NCBI GenBank assembly: GCA_035285585.1
Contig: JAYKGU010000164.1
Location: 55,609 to 119,608 of the forward strand
Source: Synechococcales cyanobacterium
GTDB taxonomy: Bacteria; Cyanobacteriota; Cyanobacteriia; CAKZMO01
Direction: 5' to 3'
DNA length: 64,000 nt
The notes beneath the pieces were generated by a model. That model was not told where the DNA came from, searched no databases, and worked only from the letters and a program-made list of their open reading frames with translations. The position numbers were made by a program, and so were the translations under genes. Shown here piece by piece: positions 514 to 63,458 of the stretch; the stretch's first letter is position 1; each line of letters opens with the position of its first letter.

Positions 514-522
514 GCAGCGTTC

Positions 523-915: not shown

Positions 916-927
916 GATTGACCTACG

Positions 928-1572: not shown

Positions 1573-1606
1573 GATCGCTGAGCGTTTGGGTGCGCCTTCT
1601 CCTAAC

Positions 1607-1924
1607 CTAGAGCTTCACTTCAATGTCAACCCCTGCAGGAAGATCAAGCTTCATCAGAGCGTCAATAGTTTTAGATGAGGGCTGATAGATATCAATGATG
1701 CGCCGATGGGTGCGTGTCTCAAAATGCTCCCGGGAGTCTTTGTCTACGTGGGGCGATCGCAGCACGCAGTAAATCCGACGTTTGGTAGGCAGCGGAATTG
1801 GACCGATCGCCGTTGCGTTGGTACGATTGGCCGTATCAACAATCTTTTCACACGAAGCGTCTAAAAGGCTACGGTCAAAAGCTTTGAGGCGAATACGAAT
1901 TTTTTGTTGCTGAATAGTTGCCAT
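1607..1924 (-). CDS. rpsJ: 30S ribosomal protein S10
   Basis: 105 aa, [17 protein letters not shown]...[29 protein letters not shown] is canonical S10. It lies downstream of tuf as in the str operon. Confidence 0.95.
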
Positions 1925-1987
1925 TAGTGATTGATCTTCATGAATTCACGATTATTGTTTTCCCCCAACCTCCAAAAGACGCTAAGG

Positions 1988-2036
1988 GGCAAAAAACTAT
2001 CAGCAGTTGAAAACAAACTCTCAACTGCTGATAGCT
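1988..2036 (-). terminator. Intrinsic terminator/attenuator between tuf and rpsJ (read on the minus strand)
   Basis: Inverted repeat ATCAGCAGTTGA(G)...TCAACTGCTGAT. In minus-strand orientation it is followed by a T-tract (plus-strand AAAAAA at about 1991-1996). Confidence 0.6.
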
Positions 2037-2053
2037 CAAACTAGATACCCAAC

Positions 2054-3274
2054 CTACTTGATGATCTTAGACACAACGCCTGCGCCGATCGTCCGACCAC
2101 CTTCACGAATTGCGAAGCGCATTCCCTGCTCAATAGCGACGGCGTTGATTAACTCAACCGTCATCTTGATGCGGTCGCCCGGCATCACCATTTCCACGTT
2201 CTCGCCCGCATCAGAGGTGTAAGCTTTGATCGTGCCAGTTACATCCGTTGTTCGGATGAAGAACTGGGGCCGGTATCCTGCGAAGAAGGGTGTATGGCGT
2301 CCACCTTCCTCCTTCTTCAGGACGTACACTTCAGACTCGAATTCGGTGTGAGGCGTAATGGAACCAGGCTTGGCAATTACCATGCCGCGCTCGATGTCTT
2401 CCTTTTTGAAGCCTCGGAGCAGAAGTCCGGCATTATCACCGGCCATCCCTTCGTCCAAGCTCTTCCGGAACATCTCAATCCCGGTCACCGTGGTCTTGCG
2501 GGTATCGCGAAGGCCAACAATCTCGACCTCCTCACCAACTTTCACCTTGCCACGCTCGATCCGTCCAGTGGCCACCGTTCCCCGACCGGTAATAGTGAAG
2601 ACGTCCTCAACCGCCATCAGGAAAGGCTTATCCACATCCCGCTCAGGGGTGGGAATGTATTCGTCAACGGTTTCCATGAGGTCGTAAATCTTTTGAACCC
2701 AAGGATCATCTACCTTACCCGCATCAATGGCCTCAACCGCCATTAGCGCAGAACCGGTGGTGATGGGGATATCGTCTCCCGGAAATTCGTAGTCGCTCAG
2801 CAACTCCCGAACTTCTAGCTCAACCAGCTCGAGCAGTTCTTCGTCATCAACCTGATCTTGCTTGTTCAGGAAAACCACCAGGTTAGGCACGTTTACCTGA
2901 CGGGCCAGGAGGATATGCTCGCGGGTCTGGGGCATGGGGCCATCAGCCGCCGAAACAACGAGGATAGCGCCATCCATCTGAGCTGCGCCCGTGATCATGT
3001 TTTTCACGTAGTCAGCGTGACCGGGGCAATCGACGTGGGCGTAGTGGCGGCTTGCGGTTTCGTATTCTACGTGGGCCGTGTTGATCGTGATCCCACGAGC
3101 CTTCTCCTCAGGAGCGGCATCAATCTCGTCGTACTTACGAGCTTTGATATTCTTGTCCTTGGCAGCCAGTGCCATCGTAATGGCGGCAGTCAAAGTGGTC
3201 TTACCGTGGTCAACGTGACCAATGGTGCCGATGTTAACGTGTGGTTTGTTTCTTTCAAACTTTTCGCGTGCCAT
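2054..3274 (-). CDS. tuf: Elongation factor Tu
   Basis: 406 aa, [33 protein letters not shown]... with full-length EF-Tu G-domain motifs. Confidence 0.97.
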
Positions 3275-3301
3275 GAGTTACGTGTCCTTATCTCTGACTA
3301 A

Positions 3302-5377
3302 TTATGCGTTCCCTTTGTTTTTAGCGATGATTGCCTCCGCAACATTGCGAGGCACCTCATCATAGTTACTGAACTCCATGGAAAAGATGCCTCGACCCTG
3401 CGTTTTAGACCGAATGTCTGTAGCATAGCCAAACATCTCTGCCAATGGCACCTTAGCCGTCACCTTGGCAATACCTTCCTCCGAGCCCATACCCTCAATT
3501 TGACCTCGACGGGAGTTTAAGTCTCCCATCACGTCACCTAAAAACTCCTCAGGAACTTCGACTTCAACCTTCATTGAGGGTTCTAGAAGAACGGGAGCAG
3601 CCTTCATTACGGCAGTCTTAATTGCCATTGAACCAGCAATCTTAAAAGCCATCTCTGAGGAGTCTACCTCATGATATGACCCATCTACCAGGGTCACCTT
3701 CAAGTCAATCACCGGATAGCCTGCCAGGATACCCGATTCGCAGGCTTCCTTCATACCACTTTCCGCAGGGGAAACGTACTCCTTAGGGATAGAACCACCG
3801 ACAATTTTGGAAACGAATTCGAAGCCACTTCCAGGCTCGCCCGGTTCAACTTCAATGACGACGTGTCCATACTGTCCTTTCCCACCGCTCTGGCGGATGA
3901 ACTTGCCCTCGGCATTAGTTGCTTTACGAATCGTTTCGCGATAAGCAACTTGAGGTGCGCCGATATTTGCTTCAACCTTAAATTCCCGCAACATTCGGTC
4001 AACGAGAATTTCCAGGTGAAGCTCCCCCATACCTGCAATCACCGTTTGATTGGTTTCCGAATCGGTGCTCACCCGAAAAGTCGGGTCTTCATCCGATAAC
4101 GACTGCAGCGCTTTTGACAGCTTTTCCATATCCTGCTTTGTCTTCGGCTCGATCGCAACGGAAATTACTGGCTCCGGAACGTAGAGAGATTCGAGGATCA
4201 CGGGGGCGTTCTGGGCACAGAGGGTATCCCCTGTAGTGGTAGTTTTCAGCCCCAATACCGCACCGAGATCTCCTGCCCGCAGCTCATCTACTTCGATGCG
4301 CTCATCTGCCTTCAAGATGATCAGGCGAGAAATTCGCTCTTTGTCACTTTTTGTGGAATTGAGAACGTAACTTCCCTTCTCCAACACCCCTGAGTAAACT
4401 CGGATAAAAGTCAGGCGTCCGTACGGATCAGCCATTACCTTGAAAGCCAGTGCCGAGAAGGGCACATCATCAGATGCAGGGCGCGTTACCTCAGTGCCAT
4501 CAGGTAAAGTACCTTGAATGGCAGGAACCTCCGGTGGGGCAGGCAAATAATCAACAACAGCGTCGAGCAAGAGCTGTACACCCTTATTCTTAAAGGCAGA
4601 ACCGCAAAGCATGGGAACCATTGTGCCCTGGATAGTGGCTTGGCGAATGCCTGAGCGAATCTCTTCAGCGGTTAACTCTTCTCCCTCCAGGTATTTTTCG
4701 GTTAGAGTATCGTTGGTTTCGGCAACCGCTTCTACGAGATTGGCCCGGTACTCCTCGGCTAGTTCGCGCACTTCCTCTGGGATTTCGGTATCTTCCATAT
4801 CGACACCAAGATCATCGTTGTAAATACGCGCGCGCATCCCGACCAAGTCAATCACACCCCTAAAGCCATCTTCTGCACCGATGGGGATTTGAATCGGAAC
4901 AGCGTTGGCCCGGAGGCGATCGCGTATCTGCTCGTAAACTTTAAAGAAGTTCGCGCCTGTGCGATCCATTTTGTTAACGAAGGCAATACGGGGTACCCGA
5001 TACCGGTCGGCCTGTCGCCAGACCGTTTCGGACTGGGGCTGCACCCCGCCAACCGAGCAAAAGACTGCGATAACACCATCCAGCACACGCATAGAGCGCT
5101 CGACCTCGATGGTGAAATCTACGTGACCTGGCGTATCAATAATATTGATGCGGTGATCGTTCCAATTGGTGCTGATTGCAGCAGCAGTAATCGTAATACC
5201 CCGCTCCCGCTCCTGCGCCATCCAATCGGTTACTGCCGTACCCTCATGGACCTCTCCGATTTTGTGAACCACACCGGAATAGAAGAGAATTCGCTCTGTT
5301 GTTGTTGTCTTGCCCGCATCAATGTGTGCAGCAATTCCGATGTTGCGTACCCGTTCAAGCGGGATATTACGAACCAC
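3302..5377 (-). CDS. fusA: Elongation factor G
   Basis: 691 aa, [20 protein letters not shown]... canonical EF-G. Its position between rpsG and tuf matches the str operon. Confidence 0.97.
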
Positions 5378-19525: not shown

Positions 19526-20518
19526 ATGGAAGCCAGCGAATTATTGCAGCGATATGCGGACAAAGACATCAACTTTGCCGGGGAGAATCTGACCGGCATG
19601 AACCTGTCAGAAGCCGACCTGATTGGCATTAATTTGAGCGGCGCAGACCTGCGCAATGCCTCCCTGGTGCTGAGCTATTTGAATCGGGCCACCCTGGACT
19701 ATGCCCACCTGGTGGCTGCCAATCTGAGTGGGGCCAATCTCACCCAGGCCAGCCTGGTTCGCGCCGTGCTAAAAGACGCCAACCTGCATGGCGCATTGCT
19801 CCAGGGGGCTGACCTGCGAAGTACCGATCTGACGCTGGCAGATTTACTCGACGCCAATTTGATGGACGCAGACCTGCGCAACGCCGACCTCAGTGGAGCC
19901 AACCTCACGGGCGCTTGCCTGCGGGGGGCGAACCTGCGGGAGGAAAACCGCCGCTATAACGCCAACCTGCGGGGGGCCAACCTGCGGAAGGTGGACCTGC
20001 GGGGAGCAAACTTAACGGGGGCAGATCTGGCCAGGGTGGATCTGCGGGGGGCGAATTTGAGCGAGGCGTGCCTGCGGGGGGCAGATCTGCAGGGGGCGGA
20101 TTTAGGTGATGCGAACCTGGTGGGGGCGTTTTTAACCGAGGCCGACCTGACCCAGGCATCCCTGCGCCATGCCAATTTGACCAACGCCAAGCTGGAGCGA
20201 TCGCACCTGAGCGGAGCCGACCTGGCCACCGTCATCCTCATTGGCGCGATTTTACCCGACGCGGATCTGAGCAACGCTAACCTGGCCTGGGCAATTCTCA
20301 CGGGGGCACAGCTTAACCGCACAAATTTGAGCCGCGCCAATCTGCGTCAAACTAATTTGAAGGAAGCAAACCTGACGGACGCCTATCTGGCCCGCGCCGA
20401 TTTAACGGATGCGGATTTGACCGATGCCAGCCTGGTGCGAGCAGAGCTGAGCAGCACGACCCTGACCGGAGCCATCCTCGCGGGGGCCACCCTGCCCGAT
20501 GGCAGCATCCATCCCTGA
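19526..20518 (+). CDS. Pentapeptide repeat protein
   Basis: About 60 consecutive A(D/N)LxG/ADLRx pentapeptides across 330 aa. Confidence 0.85.
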   Translation: MEASELLQRYADKDINFAGENLTGMNLSEADLIGINLSGADLRNASLVLSYLNRATLDYAHLVAANLSGANLTQASLVRAVLKDANLHGALLQGADLRSTDLTLADLLDANLMDADLRNADLSGANLTGACLRGANLREENRRYNANLRGANLRKVDLRGANLTGADLARVDLRGANLSEACLRGADLQGADLGDANLVGAFLTEADLTQASLRHANLTNAKLERSHLSGADLATVILIGAILPDADLSNANLAWAILTGAQLNRTNLSRANLRQTNLKEANLTDAYLARADLTDADLTDASLVRAELSSTTLTGAILAGATLPDGSIHP

Positions 20519-39311: not shown

Positions 39312-42011
39312 ATGAAGTGGGTTATGCAGGCTTTGAAACGACTGGCGATGGGGCTGGCGATCGCCACCTGGCTGTGGACACTGGGGGGTTGGGCAGCCCA
39401 GGCCCAAACGGCGATCGCCCCCCGTATTCACGACATTCAGGGGGCCAGAACCCAGTCTTCCCTGGCGAGCACCCCAAACGCCAACGTGGCCCAGGTGCCC
39501 GGCATTGTCACCGTGGTGCTGGACAACGGTTTCTACATGCAAGACCCACAACCAGACGGGGATGAGGCCACCTCGGAAGGGATTTTTGTCTTCACCAAAG
39601 AGGCTCCTGCGGTGGACGGAGCAGCCCTGGCCATTGGCGATGCCGTGCAGGTGAGCGGTCGGGTGGTGGAGTTTATCCCCGGTGGCCCGACTGCCAACAA
39701 CCTGCCCACTACCCAAATTGACGCTTCGGGTAGCGACGCAGTGATCGTGCGGGAATCGAGCGACAATCCTCTGCCGGAGCCGATCGTTCTGGGGCAGGGT
39801 GGCCGCGTGCCCCCCGCCCAAATTATTGATGATGACGGGCTGACGGTGTTTGACCCAGCGTCGGACGGCATCGACTTCTTTGAAAGCCTGGAAGGAATGC
39901 GGGTAGAAATTCCCGAGCCGCTGGTGGTGGAGCCAACCAACCGCTTTGGCGAGTTCATCGTGGTGGGCGATCGCGGAGCCACGGCTTCCCGGCTGGCGCA
40001 GACCCAGGGCCTGGTGGCCGGGGCGGGCGACCTGAACCCGGAGCGCATCTGGATAAAGAACACGATTGGCCGGACGCCGCGAGTGAATGTGGGCGATCGC
40101 TTCGTACAGCCCATCGTTGGCGTCATGGGCTACAGCTTTGGCAACTACAAGGTGTTTACCACCCAGCCCCTCTCTTCGGTGATTGCGGTGGAGCCGCAGC
40201 CAGAAACCACTGACCTGGTGGCTGGAGCCGACACCCTGACCGTCGCCGCCTTTAACGTGGAAAACCTCGATCCAGGGGATGGCGATCGCCTCCAGCAACT
40301 GGGCCGGGTGATTGCCGACAGCCTCAAGGCACCGGACATCCTGGCCCTGTCGGAAATTCAGGACAACGATGGCCCGAAGGAGACGGCGGTAACCGAGGCT
40401 GACCAGACCTACCAAGCCTTGATCAAGGCCATCCAGACGGCGGGTGGCCCCCGCTACGATTTTGCTGATGTCGCGCCCCAGGCCAACCAGGACGGCGGGC
40501 AGCCAGGGGGCAACATTCGACTGGGATTCCTCTATCAGCCCGATCGGGTCACTCTGGCAGATGCGCCGCGCGGCACAGCGACCCAGGCCGTGGAGGTCGT
40601 GCGGGATGGGAATGGCCCCCGCCTCTCCCTCAACCCAGGCCGTGTTGACCCCACGAATGCCGCCTTCAACGGTGGCCGCAAACCCGTTGCCGCAGAGTTT
40701 CGCTTCAACGGCGAGAAGATTTTCATCGTTGCCAACCACTTCAAGTCCAAGCGGGGAGACGGCGAACTCTTTGGCCGCACCCAGCCACCGGAAGCGGTGA
40801 CGGAAGCCGTGCGTCTGCCCCAGGCCACCGTGGTGCATGACTTTGTGGAAGACCTGCTGGCCGCCGACCCCAACGCCAATGTGCTGGTGGTGGGGGATTT
40901 GAACGACTTTGAGAACTCCAGAACCCTCTCGGTGCTGGCGGGAGATAAGCTGCAAAACCTGGTGGATCTGCTGCCGGAGCGCGATCGCTACACCCTGCTA
41001 TTCCAGGGCAACCTGCAGGCCTTTGACCATATCCTGGTGAGCCAGCACCCGCTGTTCGAGGCGGATCCGGCGCTGGATATCGTGCATCTCAATGCGGGCT
41101 TCGCCAATGGCGTGAGTGACCACGATCCGCTGCTGGTGAAGCTGCGGTTTCCGGCCTCAGCCAGTCCGCGTCCCGTAAGTCCCGCCCCTGTAAATCCCGC
41201 CCCTGTAAATCCCGCCCCGGTGAATCCCGCCCCGGTGAATCCCGCTCCTGTGAATCCCGTTAATCCCACAACTCCCATTAGCCCTGAGAAGCCTGCTGGT
41301 TCCACTCTATTCGAGTCGATCTTCCCCGACCTGTCAGGTCCGGCCCTGATGAATCAGCTCGCCCGCACCTACGCCCCCATCCGCACCCTGGGCTACAACG
41401 ACGGCAGAGACTATCTCTATGGCGTTGTCGAAAACCAGAATGGGGTCGTGACGGGTGTCTACACCGGCTACCAGATCCAGCTCAATCCGGGAGCTGAACC
41501 CCGTATGGATGTATTCGCCAAGGGCCTCAATGCCGAACATGTCTGGCCCCAGAGCAAGGGCGCAAAAGGGCCGGCCAAAAGTGACCTGCACCACCTGTTT
41601 CCCGCCCGAATTCGGGTGAACGGCACGCGGGGCAACAATCCCTTTGAAGACATCCCCGATGAGCAGACCGATCGCTGGTTTTTGGGACTCGATGAGCTGC
41701 GATCGCGCCCGACCAGCAACATCGACGACTATAGCGAGTTTGACCCCGGCAAGTTTGAGCCACGGGAGGTGAAGAAGGGGGATGTGGCCCGTGCCATGTT
41801 CTACTTCTACACCGTTTACAAATCCCAGGCTGACGCGGTCGACAGCAACTTCTTTCCCGGCCAGCGAGCCGTCCTCTGCCGCTGGCATGCTCAAGATCCA
41901 GCCGATGCCCTGGAGGTGGCCCGCAGTCATGCGATCGCCCAGTCACAGCAGGGCAACGAGAATCCGTTTATCCTCGACCCAACCCTAGCGAGCCGCACCT
42001 ACTGCCAGTAA
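39312..42011 (+). CDS. Secreted nuclease: N-terminal endonuclease/exonuclease/phosphatase (EEP) domain fused through a PAPVN-repeat linker to a C-terminal endonuclease I (EndA/NucM-like) domain
   Basis: Signal peptide MKWVMQALKRLAMGLAIATWLWTLGGWAAQA. The EEP blocks are LTVAAFNVENL, ALSEIQDN and VANHFKSK. The C-terminus carries EHVWPQSKG...DLHHLFPARIRVNGTRGNNPF, matching endonuclease I motifs. Confidence 0.8.
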   Translation: MKWVMQALKRLAMGLAIATWLWTLGGWAAQAQTAIAPRIHDIQGARTQSSLASTPNANVAQVPGIVTVVLDNGFYMQDPQPDGDEATSEGIFVFTKEAPAVDGAALAIGDAVQVSGRVVEFIPGGPTANNLPTTQIDASGSDAVIVRESSDNPLPEPIVLGQGGRVPPAQIIDDDGLTVFDPASDGIDFFESLEGMRVEIPEPLVVEPTNRFGEFIVVGDRGATASRLAQTQGLVAGAGDLNPERIWIKNTIGRTPRVNVGDRFVQPIVGVMGYSFGNYKVFTTQPLSSVIAVEPQPETTDLVAGADTLTVAAFNVENLDPGDGDRLQQLGRVIADSLKAPDILALSEIQDNDGPKETAVTEADQTYQALIKAIQTAGGPRYDFADVAPQANQDGGQPGGNIRLGFLYQPDRVTLADAPRGTATQAVEVVRDGNGPRLSLNPGRVDPTNAAFNGGRKPVAAEFRFNGEKIFIVANHFKSKRGDGELFGRTQPPEAVTEAVRLPQATVVHDFVEDLLAADPNANVLVVGDLNDFENSRTLSVLAGDKLQNLVDLLPERDRYTLLFQGNLQAFDHILVSQHPLFEADPALDIVHLNAGFANGVSDHDPLLVKLRFPASASPRPVSPAPVNPAPVNPAPVNPAPVNPAPVNPVNPTTPISPEKPAGSTLFESIFPDLSGPALMNQLARTYAPIRTLGYNDGRDYLYGVVENQNGVVTGVYTGYQIQLNPGAEPRMDVFAKGLNAEHVWPQSKGAKGPAKSDLHHLFPARIRVNGTRGNNPFEDIPDEQTDRWFLGLDELRSRPTSNIDDYSEFDPGKFEPREVKKGDVARAMFYFYTVYKSQADAVDSNFFPGQRAVLCRWHAQDPADALEVARSHAIAQSQQGNENPFILDPTLASRTYCQ
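41170..41262 (+). repeat. 15-bp tandem repeat (CCCGCCCCTGTAAAT x about 6) encoding (PAPVN)n linker
   Basis: Visible as SPAPVNPAPVNPAPVNPAPVNPAPVNPVNP in the nuclease ORF. Confidence 0.85.
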
Positions 42012-42060: not shown

Positions 42061-42460
42061 AACGAGTCCGTTCAGACTCCTTTTCTCCTTTGATGGGCTA
42101 CTGAGGTGATTTCTTAGGATGAAACTACCAGTCCACGGTGCGTTACGCTTCGCTTTAGCGATAGCCATGCCCTTGGGCTATACGGCAACCTACAGGCGGT
42201 ATGGTCTTTCCTGGAAATCGCCTAAGTACACATAAGTCCTGAACCCCTTGCTGTTCGGGCTTTTCCCGCAAACCCCAACCCCATCTACCAGAGCGGGGGA
42301 AGGGGAGCCAGAAAGCCTTGTCTTACCTCCCCCTCGCCCATTTTTGGGAGAGGGGGATTGAGGGGGTGAGGGTCAAGATGTGTGTACGTAGTAGCCCCAA
42401 GGAGAAGGGGATGAGGGCAGTTCAGGCTCCCGGTCAAGCCTGAGTAGTTACAAAATCTCC

Positions 42461-42781
42461 CTAGTAGGCTTTGCCCCGATACCGTCTTTCGTACTTGGTC
42501 TGTGGTGGCTGGGGAACTGGCTCATTGCTACCAGGGGCATAAACCGCTCCCCGATACCGGGGCTGGGTTGAGGATGCCTGAAGCGGCTTGCGGGCAGAGC
42601 CGGTGTCCACCAGTTCCCCGCCCTCGTAGGTTACTTGATTTTGCAAAATCAAGGCGCGCAGATTGTTCCAGGTTTGGTTAGGATGGGTTGTGAGCCACTG
42701 TTGACTGAGTTGCTGAGCGACCCGATCCGGTAGTTGAAACCGCCACATTAACGTAAGCCGAAGATCCAGTTGTTCTGTCAT
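42461..42781 (-). CDS. Small protein, DUF4278-like C-terminus (two YRGxxY motifs) plus a conserved ~65-aa N-terminal domain; paralogue 1
   Basis: C-terminal ...RYRGAVY...PQPP..KYERRYRGKAY. The ATG at 42781 is chosen over the upstream TTG by alignment with paralogue 2 (MTEQLDLRLTLMWRFQ versus MKDRLDLRITLMMRFQ). Confidence 0.6.
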   Translation of the reverse strand: MTEQLDLRLTLMWRFQLPDRVAQQLSQQWLTTHPNQTWNNLRALILQNQVTYEGGELVDTGSARKPLQASSTQPRYRGAVYAPGSNEPVPQPPQTKYERRYRGKAY

Positions 42782-42943
42782 AACCTTTGCCACAACTACT
42801 GACACTTTCAATTGTTCCTATTGAGAGAGCCAGTGGGGGCGACCTGGCGGCAACTTTATTGTTTTTTTAGAGGAAATTGCGGTTGTGTATGTAGCTGGTA
42901 AAGCTTAAGGCGTTATCTGGAAAAAGAATTAAGACCCAAGGCA

Positions 42944-43264
42944 TCAGTAGGCTTTGCCCCGGTACCTTCTGACGTACTTGGGCGGCAAGGGTGGCTGCGG
43001 GAAATCCCCACCGCTGAGGGGATAGGCCCTGCCTCGGTACTTGATCTCAGTTGATGGTTCCTGAAAAGAGTTGAGGGTAGCGCTGGTATCAATCAGTTCC
43101 CCATTCCAATAAGTGACTTGATCCTGCAGAATCAGCGATCGCAGGTCACTCCAGGTACGTCCGGGATGGGTGGCCAGCCACTTCTGGCTGAGCTGCTCGG
43201 CGGTCTGGTCACTGATTTGGAACCGCATCATCAACGTGATTCTGAGATCCAGTCGATCCTTCAT
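42944..43264 (-). CDS. Small protein, DUF4278-like; paralogue 2
   Basis: 106 aa sharing about 60% identity with paralogue 1 over the N-terminal domain. Identical C-terminal RRYRGKAY. Confidence 0.6.
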   Translation of the reverse strand: MKDRLDLRITLMMRFQISDQTAEQLSQKWLATHPGRTWSDLRSLILQDQVTYWNGELIDTSATLNSFQEPSTEIKYRGRAYPLSGGDFPQPPLPPKYVRRYRGKAY

Positions 43265-43513
43265 GGTCGTGTTACTAGGTGCTACTGGGTGCTGTCGGTT
43301 CTTAGCTCCAATTGTTGACGCTTGATGAAGGGCTGTCAGCGGTTTGTTCGTAGCTTTATTAACTTCTTTGAAGAAATCTCGGTTTTATGTGCGGTAAATA
43401 TGGGTTTTCTCGGAAAAAAAACTTCCATTTTGCCGCCACGAAGAAGTGATGAATTAGGGTCAGCCGTAGTCGGCGGAGACACTGTCCACTAGCCCTAAGT
43501 TTGTGCTATTTGA

Positions 43514-45794
43514 TTAAAGGCCAAGCAACCCGGCAATCAGCGGCAGCAGCCGGTTCACCGCCTGCACAAATTTCGTCGCGTCCGGCAGGGTCTTGGCCAT
43601 GCGGTTGAGGGTGCGGCTGGCCCTGGCGAGGACGGATTGGCGGGCTTCGGGTTCGTCGGACTGGGCGGCAGTGGCGATCGCCCCCACCGCTTCTTCGGCA
43701 TCGGGCTTTTCTTCGGCGGGCAGGTTGGGGTCGGTTTGGATGGCCTCCAGCAGTTCCGTGAGGTAGGCTTTGAGGTCGTTACCCGCTGCGGTCGGAGGAA
43801 TCTGGTTGAGGGCGTTGGTGACGGTGCCGCTGATGTCTCCCAGGTTGAGGGCAGCACCGCTGGCGGTGAAGTCGCCGCCCACGTTGCCAATTTTGATATT
43901 GCGGCTGGAGTCGGAACTGTTGGTCATGGCTTTGCTCTCCGAATGGCTAGTTGAAAGACTTTCTGATGCGCTTTTTGCCAGACTGTCGGACTGGCTATGG
44001 GACTGGCTATCGACAGTATTCGTATTGGCATTGGTAATCGTCAGATTCGACAACACGCTGCCCAAATTGCTCACGGTGGTCAAAGTAATCGCCTTGAGAT
44101 CATCGGCATGACGCCGCTCCGCCTCCAGCAGCGCCGCCGCTTTGGCCGCCTCCAGCCTGGCGGTGTAAACCTCATCCCAGGTGCGCTCAATTTGCCCTTT
44201 GTCTGCATCCTCCGGCACGTCCAGGGTCACTTGCACGTCGTTGCCCACTTTTTCAATGGAGCGAATCGAGTCGGGGGAAATCGCCGGATTATCGTCCATC
44301 AACCGCTCAAAGGCGGCCCGAAAGGCGTCTGCATTCACCCCATCCCGTAGTAAAAGCTGCACCGTGGTCATGATTTTGCGATACAGCCTGGCAAAGTCCC
44401 CCGGCTGAAACACTTTCTCCGGGTCGTGGGGACGGCGTTCGCGACTGCCGCGGGCGTTGGCCTGCTCCAGCAGAAAGACGAACTGGCAGTCCACGTGATC
44501 CAGGACGGTAGTGTGATCAATGTTCCAACCCTGCAAGCAGGCTCCCGTCAGGTAGGCGTGGGTGAAGTCAGCGTCGATGCAGAGGGTTTCTGTGAGGTTG
44601 GCAGCTTTGAGGTTGGCGGCCTGGAGAGTCGCGCCACTGAGGTCGGCCCATTTGAAGTTGGCCCCCTCCAGGTTGGCACCGCTGAGGTTGGCCCCCCGCA
44701 GGTCGGCGTCGATGTAGGACTGCCGGTAGCCGTTGAGGGTGGTCAGGAGCTTCAGCACGTTGAGGTCGGCAAGGATGGTGTCGCCGGGGCGAGCGCGATC
44801 GAGCTTGAGGGCGTCTTTGAAGCAGGTGCGGGTGAGGGTGGCGGCGCGGAAGTTGGTGCTTTTGAGCTGAGCGTGGCTGAAGTTGGCGTCAGTGAGATCG
44901 GCTTTGTAGAAGGAGGTGCCGCCCAGGGCACCAAAGGCTAAGCCAAAGCTGCGGATCACAAAGAATTTAGGATCGCCCCTGAGCGCTCGTCTCGCGGAAT
45001 AGATGCCCAAAGCAAAGGACAAGACTGCGAATGCGAATGCGACTGCGAATGCGACTGCGAATGCGACTGCGCCTGCGACTGCGCCTGCGCCTGCGACTGC
45101 GACTGCGCCTGCGACTGCGCCTGCGACTGCGACTGCGACTGCGACTGCGACTGCGACTGCGCCTGCGACTGCGCCTGCGACTGCGCCTGCGACTGCGACT
45201 GCTAATGCGACTGCGCCTGCGACTGCGCCTGCGAATGCGACTGCGACTGCGACTGCGCCTGCGACTGCGCCTGCGACTGCGCCTGCGAATGCGACTGCGA
45301 CTGCGACTGCTAATGCGACTGCGACTGCGCCTGCGCCTGCGACTGCGACAATAAGAACTATAGTACTAATTGCGCGAGTTGTAAAGCCTTGCCGAGCAAT
45401 TGCAATGGGTGTAGCCAGAATTGCAATTATCAAAAAGACGGTCACCACGATTCCCGGAGTATATCCAGCAACATCCGTAACTTCAGCGCTGAAGAAGTAG
45501 CTCACTAGAATGGCCACAAAAAAGACGTTGAGGAGTGCTGCAACAGCATTCAACAATATTGACAGCAGTACCGAAAGGATGAATTGGATAATGACCCATC
45601 GCCTTTGCAGCCCCGCCTTCGCGCCGCTAAAGTTCACCCCCGTCAGCGTCGCCCCGGCAAAGTTCGCCCCGCGAATATCCGCCCCGCTCAGGTTGGCTCC
45701 GCTCAGGTTTTGTCCCTTGAAGTTGCCACCGCGCAGGTTTGCGCCGCTGAAATCGCGTTCTCCTTGGGCATAGCGGGTGAGGAGGGAGGGGGGC
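43514..45794 (-). CDS. Large pentapeptide-repeat membrane protein with an internal poly(Ala-Val/Ala-Gly) tract and a unique C-terminal domain
   Basis: Two blocks of pentapeptide repeats (ANLSGANL...) flank predicted TM helices and a ~110-aa (AVAGAV)n stretch. The 300-aa C-terminal region is Ser/Thr-rich with no recognised domain. Start is taken at the ATG at 45794 (MPPSLLTRYAQGERDFSGANL). The same frame stays open a further 500 bp upstream through tandem repeats to 46294. Confidence 0.65.
45030..45350. repeat. Hexanucleotide tandem repeat (GCGACT/GCGCCT/GCGAAT)n, about 320 bp, inside the CDS
   Basis: About 53 hexamer units, translating on the coding (minus) strand to (Ala-Val/Ala-Gly)n. Confidence 0.9.
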
Positions 45795-45795
45795 A

Positions 45796-45836
45796 TGGGA
45801 TTTTGGATTGGGGATTTTGGATTGGGGATTTTGGAG
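45796..45836. repeat. STRR-like heptanucleotide tandem repeat (GGGATTT/TGGATTG x 6)
   Basis: GGGATTT TGGATTG GGGATTT TGGATTG GGGATTT TGGAGGG immediately 5' of the proposed start codon. Confidence 0.8.
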
Positions 45837-45896
45837 GGGTGACCAGCATCCCGTAGGGGCGATGCATTCGGTAGGGACGTTGTCGTCAGATGCAAA

Positions 45897-46085
45897 AGGT
45901 TCTGGCCGAATGCATCGCCCTTACCGCCGTGGATGAGGGGCAAAACGTTCTGGCCGAATGCATCGCCCTTACAACCGTGGGAGAGGGGCAAAAGGTTCTG
46001 GCCGAATGCATCGCCCTTACCGCCGTGGATGAGGGGCAAAACGTTCTGGCCGAATGCATCGCCCTTACCGCCGTGGGAGAGATTC
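45897..46085. repeat. 48-bp tandem repeat array (4 copies, two alternating variants)
   Basis: Unit GTTCTGGCCGAATGCATCGCCCTTACCGCCGTGGATGAGGGGCAAAAC, alternating with a ...ACAACCGTGGGAGAG... variant. It is open in both the minus frame (HGGKGDAFGQNVLPLI) and a plus frame. Confidence 0.85.
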
Positions 46086-46104
46086 CCTGATTTTGCTCTA
46101 CAGA

Positions 46105-46375
46105 ACCAAAGATAACCGATCCGCAAAAACGGGACCGTTTTCCTTAAACAAGAAATTTGCTGCTTTAATGGGGAGCGATCGCCCCTCAAACCCAACCCAT
46201 CTTGCCTTAAACAAGAAATTTGTTGCTTTAGTCGAGAATTATCTCGCTTTAAACCAGAAAATTGCTGCTTTAAAAGAGAGCGATCGCCCTCCAAACGAGA
46301 ACACCCTCACTTTGAACAAGACACTTCTTGCTTTGATCGAGAATCTTCCCGACTCAAACGAGATATTTATTGCTT
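46105..46375. repeat. Degenerate ~48-51-bp tandem repeat array (about 5 copies)
   Basis: Unit TTAAACAAGAAATTTGCTGCTTTAATGGGGAGCGATCGCCCCTCAAAC with HIP1 cores. The copies diverge progressively. Confidence 0.75.
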
Positions 46376-46485
46376 AAAAGGGGAGCGATCGCCTTTCAGA
46401 AAACCGTAGGGTGATCACTGCCGACCACAACCTTTTTGTGGTTCAGCGTGGTTCAGCGAGTCAACGGTGGCCACTGCCCACCCCC

Positions 46486-46733
46486 TGGTTGACTGACAAA
46501 ACTCTTGAAAGCCTGATTCTGCCGTAGTGGTACGACACAGCTAAAATGAGGCATTAGAGAAATTCGAGATGCCCGAATCGCCTAAATTGTGCCAAAAATC
46601 TATTGCACTACTTTAGCTGTGTCGTACCAGTAGGATGGGTTAGCGTCAGCGTAACCCATCGCAACCGTTACCGGTGTTGGGTTTCGCGTTGCTCAACACC
46701 AACCTACATCGGATCTTTTGTCAGTCAATCAGG
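46486..46733. mobile_element. MITE, copy A (family with CTGATTGACTGACAAAAG terminal inverted repeats), flanked by 9-bp target-site duplication GCCCACCCC; carries a nested second MITE
   Basis: Ends CTGGTTGACTGACAAAA ... TTTTGTCAGTCAATCAG. The flanking GCCCACCCC is directly repeated on both sides. The internal sequence is 95% identical, as reverse complement, to 63311-63458 except for a 102-bp insertion. Confidence 0.8.
46528..46629. mobile_element. Nested MITE (18-bp TIR TGGTACGACACAGCTAAA) inserted in MITE copy A with a 4-bp GTAG target duplication
   Basis: Perfect 18-bp inverted termini. The uninterrupted copy at 63311-63458 has a single CTAC/GTAG at the insertion point. Confidence 0.75.
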
Positions 46734-46956
46734 CCCACCCCACTTCATGAATAATCTAGAGTAGCGATATCCTGGAGGCAGTTTCGTTGACAACAATTGA
46801 GCAGGCAGTTATCTGCACCCAACTCGCTCAAGAGATCACCGGAATGTTTGTTCCCATATACCTTGTAAGGCTGGACGAACGCACTGGGAATCTGTTCATG
46901 TTGGCCGGGGACGAAATTGAGATTGAGATTCAGCCCAATGGACTTTGGGAATTTCT

Positions 46957-47181
46957 ATGACAAAACCTGATTTTCAAGCGATGGATTTACGGGAACTCAG
47001 GGCCTATGTTCTAAGCCATCGGCAAGACGATGAGGCGTTTTACATATTTGTCGATCGCCAGAAAGCCGCCCATCCCCAGCGAGTTCAGTATCCACTACCG
47101 CAAACCCAGGAGGATTTTGAGGCGATGCGGCGCATTGTCCGAGAGCGAATCCGGCAAATTCGACCGCATCATGACGCGTAA
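46957..47181 (+). CDS. Small hypothetical protein (74 aa)
   Basis: MTKPDFQAMDLRELRAYVLSHRQDDEAFYIFVDRQKA.. with balanced composition. The ATG at 46957 is preferred to the upstream TTG of the track ORF. Confidence 0.45.
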   Translation: MTKPDFQAMDLRELRAYVLSHRQDDEAFYIFVDRQKAAHPQRVQYPLPQTQEDFEAMRRIVRERIRQIRPHHDA

Positions 47182-47408
47182 TTCGGTCAAGGCCACCATA
47201 GCCGCAGGTCGGGGATCGGCATAGACAGGGGGGAGGTTGATCCGCCGATTTTTTTCCAGGATAAAAATCGATGACAGTGATGGGGAAAGTGTGTTAACGG
47301 GCACACTAGCGGCAAATCATCATTGCGCCCGATGATTACGCTCGATGATTGCGCCCGAAGGTTGCACCCGACTATCGCACCCGACTATCGCACTGGAAAA
47401 TTAGCCTT

Positions 47409-50400
47409 ATGGAGATGGGATCTGAACAGCTCGCGATCGCCCGTCAGCACTACCAGGCCAATCGCTTTGCGATCGCCGCCCAGCTTTGCCAGGAATTGGT
47501 CCAGGCCGACGTTTCCCAGTCAGCGGCCTGGCTTCTGCTGGGGTTGTGCCTCTATCGGCAAAAGCAGTTCCAGGAAGCGGAACATTGCTACCGCACCTTA
47601 CTGACCCATCAGCCCGATCACGTCGATGCCCTCAGCAATTTAGGCGTCATGCTCAAAGCCCAGGGGCGGCTGGCGGAGGCGATTCAGGTCTACGGACGGG
47701 CGATCGCCCTGGATCCTCAATCGGTGGCTATTTTGAACAACCTGGGCAATGCCTGCTGGCAGCAGGGGCAGCTCGATACGGCTCGCCAGCATTTTCAGCA
47801 GGCCCTCCAGCTTGCCCCCGATGATCTGGAGGTGCGCCAGAACCTGGGCAACCTGCTGCGGGAATTGGGAGACTATGGCGGGGCGATCGCCCACTACCAG
47901 CACCTGCTGCACCACCGCCCCCAGGACAGCGCCGTGTTGAACAATTTGGGCAACGCCCTCCAGGGGCTAAGGCAGTTTCCCCAGGCAGTGGCCTGCTACC
48001 AGTTGGCTCTCCGGTCTGCCCCCCAGGCCGCCCACATCTGGAGCAACCTGGGGGCAGCGCTCCAGGAGCAGGGATCTGGGGAGGAGGCGATCGCCGCTTT
48101 TCGTCGAGCGCTCGACCTGAAGCCCACCTACGCCGACGCCTACTACAACCTGGGCAACCTGTGGCGCAACCAAGATCGGCTGGCTGAGGCAATCGTGGCT
48201 TACCGCAAGGCGATCGCCCTCCGCCCCCCGTTCGCCATGGCCTACAACAACCTGGGGCTGGCCCTCCACGACCAGGGGGACTATGTTGGGGCGATCGCCG
48301 CCTACAGCCAGGCCCTGGCCCTCGAACCCGATCACGCCGACGCCCACCTGAACCGGGGCCTCTCCCACCTGATGCGGGGCAATTTCCAGGACGGCTGGCG
48401 CGACTACGAGTGGCGCTGGCGCGTGGTCGGCCCCAACTTCAAACCGCCGCGCACCTTCTCCCAACCCCAGTGGGACGGCTCCGACCTGACCGGCCAGACC
48501 ATCCTGCTCCACCCCGAACAGGGCCTGGGCGACACCCTCCAGTTCATCCGCTTCGCCCCCCTGGTCAAGGCCAAGGGCGGCACCGTCCTCCTGGAATGCC
48601 CCACCCCCCTCCTGCGGCTGTTTCAGTCCATGACCGGCATTGACCACCTCATTCCGGCGGGCCAACCCCTCCCCGACTTCCAGGTTCACGCCCCCCTGAT
48701 GAGCCTCCCCCACCTCCTGGGCATCACCCTGGCCAATTTGCCCAGCCAGGTTCCTTACTTGAGGCTTGCCGAGCAGTTAGAACTGAGGGGTCAGGAGTCA
48801 GAATTCAGGAGTCAGGAGTCAGAATCCGAAATCCAAAATCTAAAATCCAAAATCCAAATTCAAGAGTCAGAATTCAGGAGCCAGGAGGCAGAATCCAAAG
48901 TCCAAAATCTAAAATCCAAAATCCAAATTCAAGAGTCAGAATTCAGGAGTCAAAATCCAAAATCCAAAATCCAAAATCCAAAATTCAGAAAGATTGGCAT
49001 CGTCTGGGCGGGAAGTAGTGGACATCGGGGCGATCGCCACCGTTCCACCACGCTCCAATACTTCACCCGACTTCTGGAGCTACCGGACATCCAGCTCTAC
49101 AGCCTGCAAAAAGGCGAGCGGGAAGAGGATTTGGCGGAACTGGGCGATCGCGCTCCCCGCATCCACAACCTCGCCCCCGACCTCCAGGACTTTGCCGACA
49201 CCGCCGCCGCCATTGCCCAACTGGATCTGGTGATCACCGTCGATACCTCCGTGGCCCATCTGGCAGGAGCCTTGGGTAAACCCGTCTGGATTTTGCTGGG
49301 AGCCACCCCCGACTGGCGCTGGCTGAGCGATCGCCCCGAAAGCCCCTGGTATCCCACCGCCCGCCTCTTCCGCCAACCCACCCCCGGCGACTGGAACACC
49401 CTTTTCGACCAAGTGCTCAGCACCCTCACCCACCCTCACCCATCTCCCCACCCACCCACCCACCCACCAACACACCCACCCACCAACGCACCCACCCACC
49501 AACGCACCCATCAACCCATCAACGCATCAACCCATCAACCCATCAACCCATCAACGCTCACCCTCGCCCAATCCGCCTACCGCCAAAAGCGCTACTCCGA
49601 AGCCGCCACCCTCTACGAACAGGCCCTCGCCGCCACCACCGACCCAGCCGAACGCCTCGACCTCCAGACAAACCTGGGAAACGCCTACCTCCACCAAAAA
49701 CAGTTTCAGCGGGCGATCGCCCAGTACCATACCGTGTTGGCCCATGATCCGCAGCAGGGCAAAGTGCGCAACAACCTGGGGGTGGCCCTGCGGCAACTGG
49801 GGCGGCATCCAGAGGCGATCGCCCATTACCATTTTCTCCTCCAACAGCGGCCCACCGCCGACGCCCACTACAACCTGGCCAATGCCCTGCGGGATGAGGG
49901 GCAGCTTGATGCCGCCATGCACCACTACCGCCAGGCCCTGGAGCGACAGCCCGACTACGCCAGCGCCTGGAACAACCTCGCCAGCGCGCTTAAAGATGCG
50001 GGACGTGTGGATGAGGCGATCGCCTGCTACCGCCACACCCTCACCCTCGTCCCCGATCACGCCAGTGCTCACTACAATCTGGGCTACGTTCTTCTGTTTA
50101 AAGGCGACCTGGCGGCGGGGTTTGCGGCCTACGAGTGGCGCTGGCGGGTGGCCAATTTCAGGGCACCCCGATGCTGTCCCCAGCCTCAGTGGGATGGCGC
50201 TGACCTCCAGGGAGCCACGATTCTGCTGCACACTGAGCAGGGCTTTGGCGATGCCATTCAATTCAGTCGGTACGTGCCTTTGGTAGCGCAGCGGGGCGGC
50301 AGGGTAATTGTCGAATGTCGGCCTCCCTTAAGGCGGCTGCTAAGCACCGTGCCGGGGGTGGCGCAGGTCGTCTCCCCGGATGAGCCACTGCCGCCCTTTG

Positions 50401-51050
50401 ATGTCCATGCGCCGCTGATGAGCCTGCCCCACATTCTGGGCACCACCCTGGCGACGGTTCCTGCCCCGATTCCCTATCTCTCACCCCCCGCCGCAGACCT
50501 TCCCCTCCCTGAACCGTCCGGGCCGCTTACCGTGGCAACGTCTCCCCCTCTAAAGGTCGGTTTGGTATGGGCAGGCAGCCCCACCCATAAAAATGACGCC
50601 CATCGCTCGTGCCCATTCATGTACATCTGGCGACTGCTGCGATCGCCCGGAATCATTTTCTACAGCCTGCAAAAGGGCGATCGCACCCGCGACCTGGCGG
50701 ACTACTGCGACCACCAGTGGCCGGTGATTGACCTGGGCGATCGCCTCCAGGACTTTGCTGACACGGCAGCGGCGATCGCCCAGCTCGACCTGGTGATTAC
50801 CGTCGATACGGCGGTGGCCCACCTGGCGGGGGCGCTGGGCAAACCCGTGTGGATTCTCCTTTCCCAGCCCTGCGACTGGCGCTGGCTGGGCGCTCGGCCC
50901 GATAGCCCCTGGTACCCGACCGCACGCCTTTTCCGTCAGGCCCGACCGGGGGATTGGGCGGAACTGCTGGGTCGGGTCCGGCAGGCGCTGATAGACGGTA
51001 GGTTGGCGTTGAGCGAAGCGAAACCCAACAGGCATAGCCCATCAATTTAA
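47409..51050 (+). CDS. Tandemly duplicated TPR-repeat / GT9-like (heptosyltransferase-fold) glycosyltransferase protein
   Basis: Two consecutive copies of about 8 TPR motifs, a WRDYEWRWR motif and a GT9-like domain (GLGDTLQFIRFAPL.. / GFGDAIQFSRYVPL.., then KIGIVWAGS.. / KVGLVWAGS.., ending DLVITVDTSVAHLAGALGKPVWILL). The copies are joined by a His/Pro/Thr-rich linker. The start may be the track ORF's 47349. Confidence 0.75.
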   Translation: MEMGSEQLAIARQHYQANRFAIAAQLCQELVQADVSQSAAWLLLGLCLYRQKQFQEAEHCYRTLLTHQPDHVDALSNLGVMLKAQGRLAEAIQVYGRAIALDPQSVAILNNLGNACWQQGQLDTARQHFQQALQLAPDDLEVRQNLGNLLRELGDYGGAIAHYQHLLHHRPQDSAVLNNLGNALQGLRQFPQAVACYQLALRSAPQAAHIWSNLGAALQEQGSGEEAIAAFRRALDLKPTYADAYYNLGNLWRNQDRLAEAIVAYRKAIALRPPFAMAYNNLGLALHDQGDYVGAIAAYSQALALEPDHADAHLNRGLSHLMRGNFQDGWRDYEWRWRVVGPNFKPPRTFSQPQWDGSDLTGQTILLHPEQGLGDTLQFIRFAPLVKAKGGTVLLECPTPLLRLFQSMTGIDHLIPAGQPLPDFQVHAPLMSLPHLLGITLANLPSQVPYLRLAEQLELRGQESEFRSQESESEIQNLKSKIQIQESEFRSQEAESKVQNLKSKIQIQESEFRSQNPKSKIQNPKFRKIGIVWAGSSGHRGDRHRSTTLQYFTRLLELPDIQLYSLQKGEREEDLAELGDRAPRIHNLAPDLQDFADTAAAIAQLDLVITVDTSVAHLAGALGKPVWILLGATPDWRWLSDRPESPWYPTARLFRQPTPGDWNTLFDQVLSTLTHPHPSPHPPTHPPTHPPTNAPTHQRTHQPINASTHQPINPSTLTLAQSAYRQKRYSEAATLYEQALAATTDPAERLDLQTNLGNAYLHQKQFQRAIAQYHTVLAHDPQQGKVRNNLGVALRQLGRHPEAIAHYHFLLQQRPTADAHYNLANALRDEGQLDAAMHHYRQALERQPDYASAWNNLASALKDAGRVDEAIACYRHTLTLVPDHASAHYNLGYVLLFKGDLAAGFAAYEWRWRVANFRAPRCCPQPQWDGADLQGATILLHTEQGFGDAIQFSRYVPLVAQRGGRVIVECRPPLRRLLSTVPGVAQVVSPDEPLPPFDVHAPLMSLPHILGTTLATVPAPIPYLSPPAADLPLPEPSGPLTVATSPPLKVGLVWAGSPTHKNDAHRSCPFMYIWRLLRSPGIIFYSLQKGDRTRDLADYCDHQWPVIDLGDRLQDFADTAAAIAQLDLVITVDTAVAHLAGALGKPVWILLSQPCDWRWLGARPDSPWYPTARLFRQARPGDWAELLGRVRQALIDGRLALSEAKPNRHSPSI
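48786..48992. repeat. STRR-like heptanucleotide repeat (AAAATCC/GAATTCA/GGAGTCA, about 30 units), in frame within the TPR-GT9 CDS
   Basis: Strict 7-nt periodicity over about 207 bp. It translates to a 7-aa periodic linker (ESEFRSQ / IQNLKSK) between the two lobes of the first GT9-like domain. Confidence 0.85.
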
Positions 51051-57013: not shown

Positions 57014-57117
57014 TGGGTCTCAATTTGACTAATCATTAGAGGCTGGAGAACCCGCAAGCTGTAAAATTCGCTACAACTTAATTTTCGCTTTAGATTTGCC
57101 CTGGCCAGGGCTGTTGG

Positions 57118-57262
57118 CCTGATTGACTGACAAAAGTTTCAAATGTAGGTTGGCGTTGAGCGAAGCGAAACCCAACACCAGCGAGGGTTATGTTGGGTTT
57201 CGCTAGCGCTCTACCCAACCTACAGCAGAATAAGGGTTTCAAGAATTTTGTCAGTCAATCAG
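57118..57262. mobile_element. MITE, copy C, flanked by 9-bp target-site duplication GCTGTTGGC
   Basis: CTGATTGACTGACAAAAG ... AATTTTGTCAGTCAATCAG termini with GCTGTTGGC directly repeated on both flanks. The internal palindromic core is shared with the 50993-51090 element. Confidence 0.8.
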
Positions 57263-57282
57263 GCTGTTGGCCTTAAGGTTCC

Positions 57283-63310: not shown

Positions 63311-63458
63311 GTCGTTTGGCTGATTGACTGACAAAAGATCCGATGTAGGTTGGTGTTGAGCAACGCGAAACCCAACACCGGTAACAGTTGCGATGGGTTA
63401 CGCTGACGCTAACCCATCCTACGGCAGAATCAAGCTTTCAAGAATTTTGTCAGTCAGT
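63311..63458. mobile_element. MITE, copy D (uninterrupted, inverted relative to copy A)
   Basis: CTGATTGACTGACAAAAG...AATTTTGTCAGTCAGTCGAG. About 95% identical to the reverse complement of copy A minus its nested insertion. Confidence 0.8.

Follow-up and report, generated by a model that had tools for sequence, protein, structure and literature searches.

The window examined here is a stretch of 64,000 nt from a metagenome-assembled genome (MAG) of a Synechococcales cyanobacterium (contig JAYKGU010000164.1), in which the HIP1 octamer GCGATCGC, a cyanobacterial signature, occurs 119 times against about one expected copy (G+C 57%). The locus of interest lies on the minus strand, where a gene for a large pentapeptide-repeat membrane protein is preceded by about 1 kb of repeats and followed by two small paralogous genes. 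Within its hydrophobic core the large gene carries a hexanucleotide microsatellite that would be translated as (Ala-X)54, and equivalent tracts with other repeat units are found in other members of its family. The region is probably best viewed as three separate neighbours, namely a stand-alone membrane-protein gene with a coding microsatellite, a set of non-coding 5' repeats, and two small genes that are functionally unconnected to it. The original prediction for this region proved mostly right in its details, but it misjudged how far the large open reading frame (ORF) extends and what kind of C-terminus the protein has.

The large gene and its protein

A minus-strand gene of 2.3–2.8 kb had been predicted, and the ORF is real, but its mechanical extent in the ORF list (46294 to 43514, 926 aa from a TTG) is not. 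The 926-aa ORF is evidently a read-through of non-coding 5' repeats, and the coding sequence (CDS) appears to be 45796..43514, because the ATG at 45796 marks the point at which all full-length homologues begin (M-x-x-x-(L/V)-L-x-x-Y-x-x-G-E-R-D-F, reading MPPSLL here), the 166 codons upstream of it consist of tandem repeats throughout, and one of the repeat arrays contains a 10-nt insertion in the nearest relative, an Elainellaceae genome (L002/L009), in which this ATG and its surroundings are kept. The NCBI model covers the last 502 codons only (P0003) and begins just past the Ala-X tract. This probably reflects an annotation habit, since a Nodosilinea orthologue has models of 714 and 424 aa for one locus, with the same shortening after the tract. 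For annotation more generally, gene callers either cut these genes after the tract (502-aa and 424-aa models) or lengthen them through open 5' repeats (926-aa ORF, P0004), and short-read assemblies break within the tract.

Few protein families of cyanobacteria are as expanded, or as poorly understood, as the pentapeptide-repeat proteins. The large protein belongs to this superfamily (PF00805, E 2.2e-34), and Pfam and NCBIfam scans recognised nothing in it beyond the repeats. A search of 5.8 billion proteins (E ≤ 1e-10) gave 1021 matches, the top ones full length with 40–60% identity; the best 120 are nearly all cyanobacterial and 600–750 aa long, many covering 90–100% of the query. At least 424 loci were confirmed in species-representative genomes, including those of Crocosphaera, Microcystis, Moorena, Nostoc, Fischerella and Leptolyngbya-type cyanobacteria, often with several per genome, under generic names such as "pentapeptide repeat-containing protein", "putative low-complexity protein" or "RfrA family pentapeptide repeat". 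Full-length alignments with 15 and 81 homologues (43–57% identity, with motifs invariant or nearly so) place it in a family of ∼700-aa membrane pentapeptide proteins, which share the order of N-terminal repeats, an Ala/Val/Gly-rich hydrophobic core, a second repeat block, the motifs DCQ[YF]VFLLE, RERRPH and FQPGDF, and a C-terminal bundle ending LLPxIxxLLGL. The closest relative is 60% identical. When flanking ORFs of at least 100 aa at family loci were clustered, no family was common to more than nine loci, and those nine were closely related; the larger clusters were antisense shadow ORFs inside the gene itself and the rest was synteny by descent. The large gene is an ordinary member of a widespread, cyanobacteria-restricted family without conserved neighbours. 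Literature searches found no paper describing this subfamily, even though it spans the phylum with hundreds of members.

The expectation that pentapeptide repeats flank the hydrophobic core on both sides was borne out in an AlphaFold model (alignment of 82 sequences; mean predicted local distance difference test score (pLDDT) 79.5), in which the two beta-helices enclose a core of predicted helices at residues 65–102, 114–136, 140–169, 181–234 and 237–272, with a further amphipathic helix at 276–290. Invariant or near-invariant columns of the family alignments, C437, R452–P456, F463, G466 and F468, lie around the start of the alpha/beta subdomain that follows the second beta-helix. What had been described as a Ser/Thr-rich C-terminal domain without a recognisable fold does not stand: the Ser/Thr/Asn-rich stretch is predicted to be a disordered linker, made up in part of an insertion that only the window protein has, and behind it comes a confidently modelled helical bundle (652–757 in the model). 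A PDB sequence search with the C-terminal half of the protein returned no match below E 0.1, and a fold search with the whole model returned mostly pentapeptide proteins and generic or designed helix bundles, which is uninformative on the non-repeat domains.

Arginine and lysine residues stand at both junctions between the core and the repeat domains (LQRR, RQGFTTR, RRALRGDPK), and by charge count the sole sizeable loop, residues 103–113, is acidic. Under the positive-inside rule both beta-helices and the whole C-terminal half would therefore face the cytoplasm, which argues against the surface or envelope component that had been proposed. The likeliest role would be that of a membrane-anchored scaffold, with partners bound through the repeat faces and association through the coiled coil and the terminal bundle.

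Among described pentapeptide proteins, HglK (All0813) of Nostoc/Anabaena PCC 7120 is comparable in being a cyanobacterial protein of ∼700 aa with membrane-spanning segments and pentapeptide repeats; it resides in the cytoplasmic membrane and is thought to organise membrane-associated structures (PMC8145042). HglK, however, is described with four membrane segments at its N-terminus and, from residue 501 onwards, 36 repeats (PMC8145042), whereas the window protein has repeats at residues 1–62 and 290–440 around its core and a C-terminal 320 residues of non-repeat sequence, so that by comparison with the published description its architecture is not of the HglK type. Alr5209, Rfr23, Rfr32 and Np275/276, for which structures are solved, are soluble single-domain proteins of 100–180 aa, and none has a hydrophobic core, an alpha/beta subdomain or a terminal bundle. 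The recently described CipG, a soluble carboxysome-associated pentapeptide protein, was also considered, and its architecture is unrelated.

A coding hexanucleotide microsatellite in the membrane core

Tandem Repeats Finder (TRF) reports a period-6 array at 45023–45349 with 54.5 copies, a score of 479 and 86% matches. In translation this is a tract of 108 residues made of 54 hexamers, 31 of them GCAGTC, 15 GCAGGC, six GCATTC and two GCATTA. The poly(Ala-X) tract of ∼110 residues that had been predicted is therefore real, but with four unit types and 86% matches it is not encoded by a pure repeat. All 54 alanines of the tract use the codon GCA, compared with 11 of 90 in the rest of the gene, which is the signature of recent expansion at the DNA level, not of residue-by-residue selection.

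Across orthologues and paralogues in the family, the tract ranges from 0 to 119 residues. The longest is that of Crocosphaera chwakensis CCY0110, which lies at the same position and is built of GCCGTA (38 copies) and GCCGGA (20 copies); Cyanobacteria bacterium J06638_28 has 99 residues encoded by GCTGTC, GCTGGC and GCTTTC, the MinION-assembled genome JS3 has 37 copies of GCTGTC, and in Microcoleus the units are GCAGGG, GCAGTG and GCAGCG. About ten further family members have equivalent tracts, and in all these tracts together the Ala-codon homogeneity is mostly between 0.76 and 1.0. The closest relative and other members have instead an irregular core rich in Ala, Val, Gly and Ile, and in one member (P0103) the core tract is nearly absent. 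Because the units differ by lineage, and because other members including the closest relative have an irregular core, the expansions are taken to be independent and lineage-specific.

The length variability suggested by the original prediction is supported by this range and by three pairs of near-identical proteins in the 90%-identity clusters that differ essentially only by in-frame indels in the core repeat tract: P0093 and P0214 (100% identity) by 14 aa, P0107 and P0210 (98.4%) by 14 and 2 aa, and P0115 and P0178 (99.7%) by 4 aa, corresponding to one NLVA unit. Polymorphism in unit number is thus seen in three other family members, all from short-read assemblies. For the window gene, a metagenome scan for near-identical contigs returned relatives of 44–48% identity only. 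Phase variation had also been suggested, but with a 6-nt unit slippage in the coding repeat changes length alone, and the mechanism is excluded there; all of the observed indels are likewise in frame. Replication slippage would add or remove whole Ala-X dipeptide units and the frame would never be lost. The locus resembles bacterial coding simple-sequence repeats and contingency loci in having a slippage-prone intragenic repeat whose unit number varies between near-identical alleles, but it differs from them in its 6-nt unit, in the lack of on/off switching, and in that the tract is hydrophobic and membrane-embedded, not an exposed surface repeat.

Small-xxx-small faces drive the association of helices in membranes. 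An (Ala-X)n helix would place alanine at i, i+2 and i+4 in every register and so present continuous packing faces of this kind, which may explain why changes in length are tolerated. It is possible, if rather unlikely, that the tract serves across the family as a selected "length dial", in which slippage alleles of 0 to ∼120 residues alter membrane seating or oligomerisation and give a population heritable and rapidly reversible heterogeneity; candidate effects would be on the thickness or curvature of the thylakoid or plasma membrane, or on self-association through the small-xxx-small faces. Were this so, it would be a contingency mechanism whose target is a transmembrane segment and neither a surface epitope nor the reading frame. 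Literature searches on the tract sequence, and on hexanucleotide repeats in cyanobacterial pentapeptide proteins, returned nothing relevant. The recurrent, lineage-specific hexanucleotide microsatellite in the membrane core of this family therefore seems to be undescribed and is the main point of interest here, and the recurrent expansions offer a testable handle on whether slippage can tune the length of a transmembrane tract.

Table 1. Coordinates of the features at the locus (positions in the 64,000-nt window).
Feature	Position	Strand	Basis and remarks
CDS, pentapeptide-repeat membrane protein	43514..45796	-	760 aa + stop; ATG at 45796 (MPPSLLTRYAQGERDF...); alignments and conserved start
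N-terminal pentapeptide beta-helix, residues 1–62	45611..45796	-	Pfam Pentapeptide and Pentapeptide_3; pLDDT 85–98; single-residue strands every 5 residues
Hydrophobic region, predicted multi-pass, residues 65–272	44981..45604	-	Flanked by LQRR (N side) and RRALRGDPK (C side)
Hexanucleotide microsatellite, (Ala-X)54, residues 151–258	45023..45346	-	TRF; pLDDT <50
Second, longer pentapeptide beta-helix, residues 290–440	44477..44929	-	AlphaFold model
Family-specific alpha/beta subdomain, residues 441–530	44207..44476	-	Motifs DCQ[FY]VFLLE...RERRPHDP..FQPGDF; pLDDT ∼95; no Pfam or PDB sequence match
Predicted long single helix/coiled coil, residues 533–584	44045..44200	-	AlphaFold
Predicted disordered Ser/Thr/Asn-rich linker, residues ∼585–651	43844..44044	-	pLDDT 30–44; gap columns 665–696 in family alignment
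Conserved C-terminal helical bundle, residues 652–760	43517..43843	-	pLDDT 90–96; ends ...LLPLIAGLLGL; family-conserved
Small gene 1, 106 aa	42944..43264	-	Annotated as VKK04_14245 ("Synechococcales bacterium" MAG, identical); N-domain at residues 1–60, YRG motif pair in the tail
Small gene 2, 106 aa	42461..42781	-	Paralogue of small gene 1; P0123 among library representatives
14-nt × 3 repeat (heptamer, STRR-like), directly 5' of start codon	45797..45842		Non-coding; 6-nt length difference in L002/L009
Inverted copy of 48-nt repeat core	45853..45881		Inverted repeats I2–I5, 83–95% complementary
48-nt tandem array, ∼4 copies	45892..46081		Non-coding; homologous L002 array has 10-nt insertion
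Five ∼46-nt units, alternating 63/42-nt spacing (105-nt period)	46143..46398		Most hold HIP1 GCGATCGC; similar to L002 7480–7730 in all frames
MITE-like dispersed element, 18-nt inverted repeats at ends	46484..46733		Inverted repeat I6

Small genes, upstream repeats and the terminal module

Two paralogous genes of ∼105 aa had been predicted 3' of the large gene, and both are indeed present, each encoding 106 aa with 58% identity between them; the start of small gene 2 is most likely the ATG at 42781 and not the TTG at 42811. The ratio of nonsynonymous to synonymous substitution (dN/dS) is 0.22 between the paralogues, 0.06–0.18 against the homologue at locus L001, and 0.09–0.10 within the N-terminal domain. 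By these measures the small genes are under purifying selection, and together with the N-domain model and the homologues described below this marks them as real; they are evidently the product of a recent tandem duplication. Their family is rare: in 1.84 billion representatives, searched exhaustively with a profile, 23 proteins were found at E ≤ 0.001, and a word-indexed search gave 34 clusters. Named members come mainly from Gloeothece and Acaryochloris, with one receiver-fusion cluster labelled Candidatus Gracilibacteria.

The suggestion of a conserved novel N-terminal domain is upheld, as the first 60 residues form three helices and a beta-hairpin in a confident AlphaFold model (pLDDT ∼90) and a Pfam scan of this domain gave no match. 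A fold search of the small protein returned weak three-helix matches only; the ANTAR RNA-binding domains of NasR, AmiR, EutV and Rv1626 (PF03861), which have a three-helix fold, may be named as a comparison system. The domain occurs in two or three tandem copies in two proteins (P0131, P0138), and at least eight clusters (P0143, P0145, P0147, P0149 and others, 183–192 aa) have it as an N-terminal fusion on a CheY-like receiver with the annotation PixG/PilG. Such receiver fusions lie at L007 8001–8579 and L095 8001–8552, one of them among GAF-rich chemoreceptor genes. Members of the Acaryochloris type are divergent from an ammonium-transporter (amt) gene across an intergenic region of ∼800 nt (L005/L006 5726–8285, L094 5693–8294). 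These neighbourhoods, from Acaryochloris and an unrelated metagenome contig, otherwise differ in context, and this recurrence may hint at a nitrogen-related linkage. Members near taxis-like clusters occur in L001 and in Acaryochloris, and those in Gloeothece have neither amt nor taxis neighbours. Since the N-domain elsewhere is fused to CheY-like receivers or stands beside amt or taxis genes, the two proteins are most likely small regulatory or adaptor proteins, with a possible lead to nitrogen or taxis signalling.

The strongly basic tails of the small proteins each carry two YRG..Y motifs, which had been thought reminiscent of DUF4278 (PF14105). A weak match does exist, at profile positions ∼20–57 only and with E 0.004–0.01, but the scores of 16.7 bits (gene 1) and 17.8 bits (gene 2) lie under the Pfam cut-off of 25.3. 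In the wider family, 12 of 21 members match DUF4278 at E ≤ 1 (best E 6e-06). The tail may thus be called DUF4278-like, below the cut-off in both of the window proteins.

The repeats 5' of the large gene, extending over ∼1 kb, appear to be intergenic and non-coding. Heptamer repeats of the short tandemly repeated repetitive (STRR) kind were expected here and were found as a 7/14-nt array, whereas of the two 48-bp arrays described only one has that period; the other consists of five ∼46-nt units that mostly contain HIP1 and recur with a period of 105 nt. It had also been noted that the arrays stay in frame with the large ORF. This is literally true, as the frame is open to 46294, and it stays open because the periods or total lengths of the arrays are divisible by three (3 × 14 nt, 48 nt, 105 nt). 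The extension itself, however, appears non-coding: homologues start at 45796, and although the upstream DNA is ∼90% identical in the nearest relative, a 10-nt insertion in the 48-nt array there is incompatible with coding, and the heptamer array differs by 6 nt. The repeats can also be read through without a stop in several other frames, and tblastx matches occur in all frames. The inverted copy of the 48-nt core at 45853–45881 could pair with any unit of the adjacent array, giving potential long hairpins in a 5' UTR. A comparable case of an open repeat is the heptamer array at 48775–48984, which lies inside an uninterrupted 1233-aa ORF. Farther upstream is an element resembling a miniature inverted-repeat transposable element (MITE), of which a 103-nt piece is 99% identical to 63320–63422, 17 kb away, with partial copies at 57116–57264.

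The C-terminal module of the large protein appears to be mobile between membrane anchors, with recent recombination in this lineage, because in L009 (region 32–3665) the orthologue (691 aa) lacks the terminal bundle and the adjoining gene carries a copy of it. This next gene encodes an SPFH/Band-7 membrane domain (E 4.4e-32) fused to a C-terminal part of ∼250 residues that matches residues ∼478–760 of the window protein; in a comparison with window positions 43517–44360, the last ∼80 residues compared are 96% identical.

Alternative readings and neighbouring genes

The original prediction treated the large gene and the two small genes as one arrangement, with the small proteins as partners of the large one. 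The small-family profile was run against six-frame ORFs from 80 large-family loci with 6-kb flanks (E ≤ 1) and matched in 0 of 80, while all known small-family genes were recovered in the same way. Conversely, the large-family gene is absent from the six other small-family contexts examined, which also differ among themselves, and from the surroundings of the small-family members in L001, L003, L005/6, L007/8, L093, L094 and L095, and in the nearest relative the two families lie on different contigs of the same metagenome. Given these three results, the adjacency is best explained as fortuitous, and the three-gene unit with partner proteins is not supported. A functional module, made of a variable envelope membrane protein and two dedicated, co-transcribed small partners, would be favoured by the common strand, the short gaps, the lack of a predicted terminator between the genes, and the repetition of the arrangement in an independent assembly of the same sample (run SRR13425444, 100% identical over 45067..42358 and ending 45 nt inside the hexamer tract). 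Set against the distribution of the two families, and against a weak promoter-like site ahead of small gene 1 and a charge distribution that puts the soluble domains in the cytoplasm, such a module is very unlikely. The promoter and terminator scan gave counts at or below the shuffled expectation.

A pseudogene or assembly artefact in place of the large ORF, with a mis-assembled hexamer tract and a true gene of the 3' 502 codons only, would fit the NCBI model (P0003), the end of the independent short-read assembly inside the tract and the origin of the DNA in a MAG. The frame is nevertheless open through the tract, the 258 upstream residues align full length with homologues, including the invariant N-terminal repeat domain, and equivalent tracts are present in isolate or long-read genomes (Crocosphaera chwakensis CCY0110, JS3 assembled from MinION reads, and Nodosilinea FACHB-13), of which the Nodosilinea locus also points to the annotation habit noted above. 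An artefact is, on this evidence, extremely unlikely. Some observations do weigh against the reading of three separate neighbours with a length-variable tract. Short-read metagenome assemblies, the source of the three allelic indel pairs, may mis-size repeats, and the number of units in the window tract is itself uncertain, given that the SRR13425444 assembly breaks at 45067. Co-transcription of the three genes in this genome is possible, as all run in one direction, only 249 and 162 nt separate them, and nothing resembling a terminator was found in these gaps. The ∼90% conservation of the 5' repeats with the nearest relative makes a regulatory role possible, and the hairpin-capable conserved region at 45853–46081 may be a regulatory leader. 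Finally, the scaffold role and the cytoplasmic topology are both inferred.

The small proteins could also inactivate glutamine synthetase (GS), as IF17/IF7-type factors do, or serve nitrogen control in another way. DUF4278 marks IF17 and IF17-like proteins and covers the N-terminal part of IF17 (PMC6212724, PMC6316151), so the tail matches described above speak for this, as do the basic tails and the two family members that are divergent beside an ammonium-transporter gene in different contexts. The DUF4278 part of IF17 is, however, non-inhibitory and dispensable for GS inactivation (PMC6316151), and both window proteins score below the cut-off. Genes encoding DUF4278 are usually preceded by glutamine riboswitches (PMC6212724, PMC6316151), but none (glnA RNA or Downstream-peptide motif) was found here at gathering or relaxed thresholds: an Rfam scan of the whole window was negative at gathering score, and within 42300–46900 the matches at E ≤ 10 did not rise above chance level. 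The NtcA box GTA-N8-TAC occurs eight times in the window, and none of these lies between 42400 and 43600 or near the three genes. An IF7-type GS-binding module, which has conserved arginines, was also rejected, as the IF7 model NF052599, which recognises IF7 at E 2.7e-36, did not match and hhalign aligned four residues only, at a probability of 0.4%. The small proteins share with IF17-like proteins their size, basic character, cyanobacterial origin and paired YRG..Y motifs; they differ in that the motif pair is C-terminal, behind a new 60-residue domain, with sub-cut-off scores and no riboswitch, NtcA site or IF7-like module, and the GS-factor reading is improbable.

For the large protein, a place in a conflict or defence-type system would make the bundle a shared adaptor and the variable tract a diversifying element. 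The bundle (residues 648–757) does match the PADLOC candidate family PDC-M14B at E 1.4e-07, the 96% identical module sits on a SPFH/Band-7 membrane protein beside the orthologue in L009, and Moorena, Fischerella and the Cyanobacteria bacterium SBLK MAG each carry more than one family member. PDC-M14, however, is itself a candidate system, the match covers only the last ∼105 positions of the profile (161–265 of 267), and the partner gene was not found among the neighbours; a literature search on PDC-M14 returned nothing relevant. No NTPase, nuclease or other defence gene is recurrent beside family members, and in the window the flanks of the gene hold nothing of a defence type. Although possible, a role in a conflict system has no support from context, and as an account of this protein it is very improbable.

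The genes in the wider surroundings are unrelated to the large gene: one flank has a secreted nuclease, a two-component pair and a beta-lactamase-fold RTX protein, the other a DUF6888/DUF6887 pair and a TPR-glycosyltransferase gene. The putative secreted nuclease (899 aa, ORF 39312–42011, plus strand) has an endonuclease/exonuclease/phosphatase domain and an Endonuclease I domain, joined by a (PAPVN)n linker that is encoded by a 15-nt repeat at 41175–41259 (5.7 copies), an in-frame coding repeat. A soluble pentapeptide-repeat protein of 330 aa is encoded 24 kb off at 19526–20518 (plus strand); outside its repeats it shows no relationship to the large gene. The DUF6888 (57 aa) and DUF6887 (78 aa) genes overlap by 16 nt at 46787–47181 (plus strand), between the repeat-rich region and the TPR gene. 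The latter, the 1233-aa ORF at 47349–51050 (plus strand), comprises two TPR-plus-glycosyltransferase-9 modules. A heptamer (STRR) array with ∼23 copies, together with a 69-nt repeat, joins them in frame, and the ORF may in fact be two genes, or a duplicated gene whose copies are connected by an open repeat.

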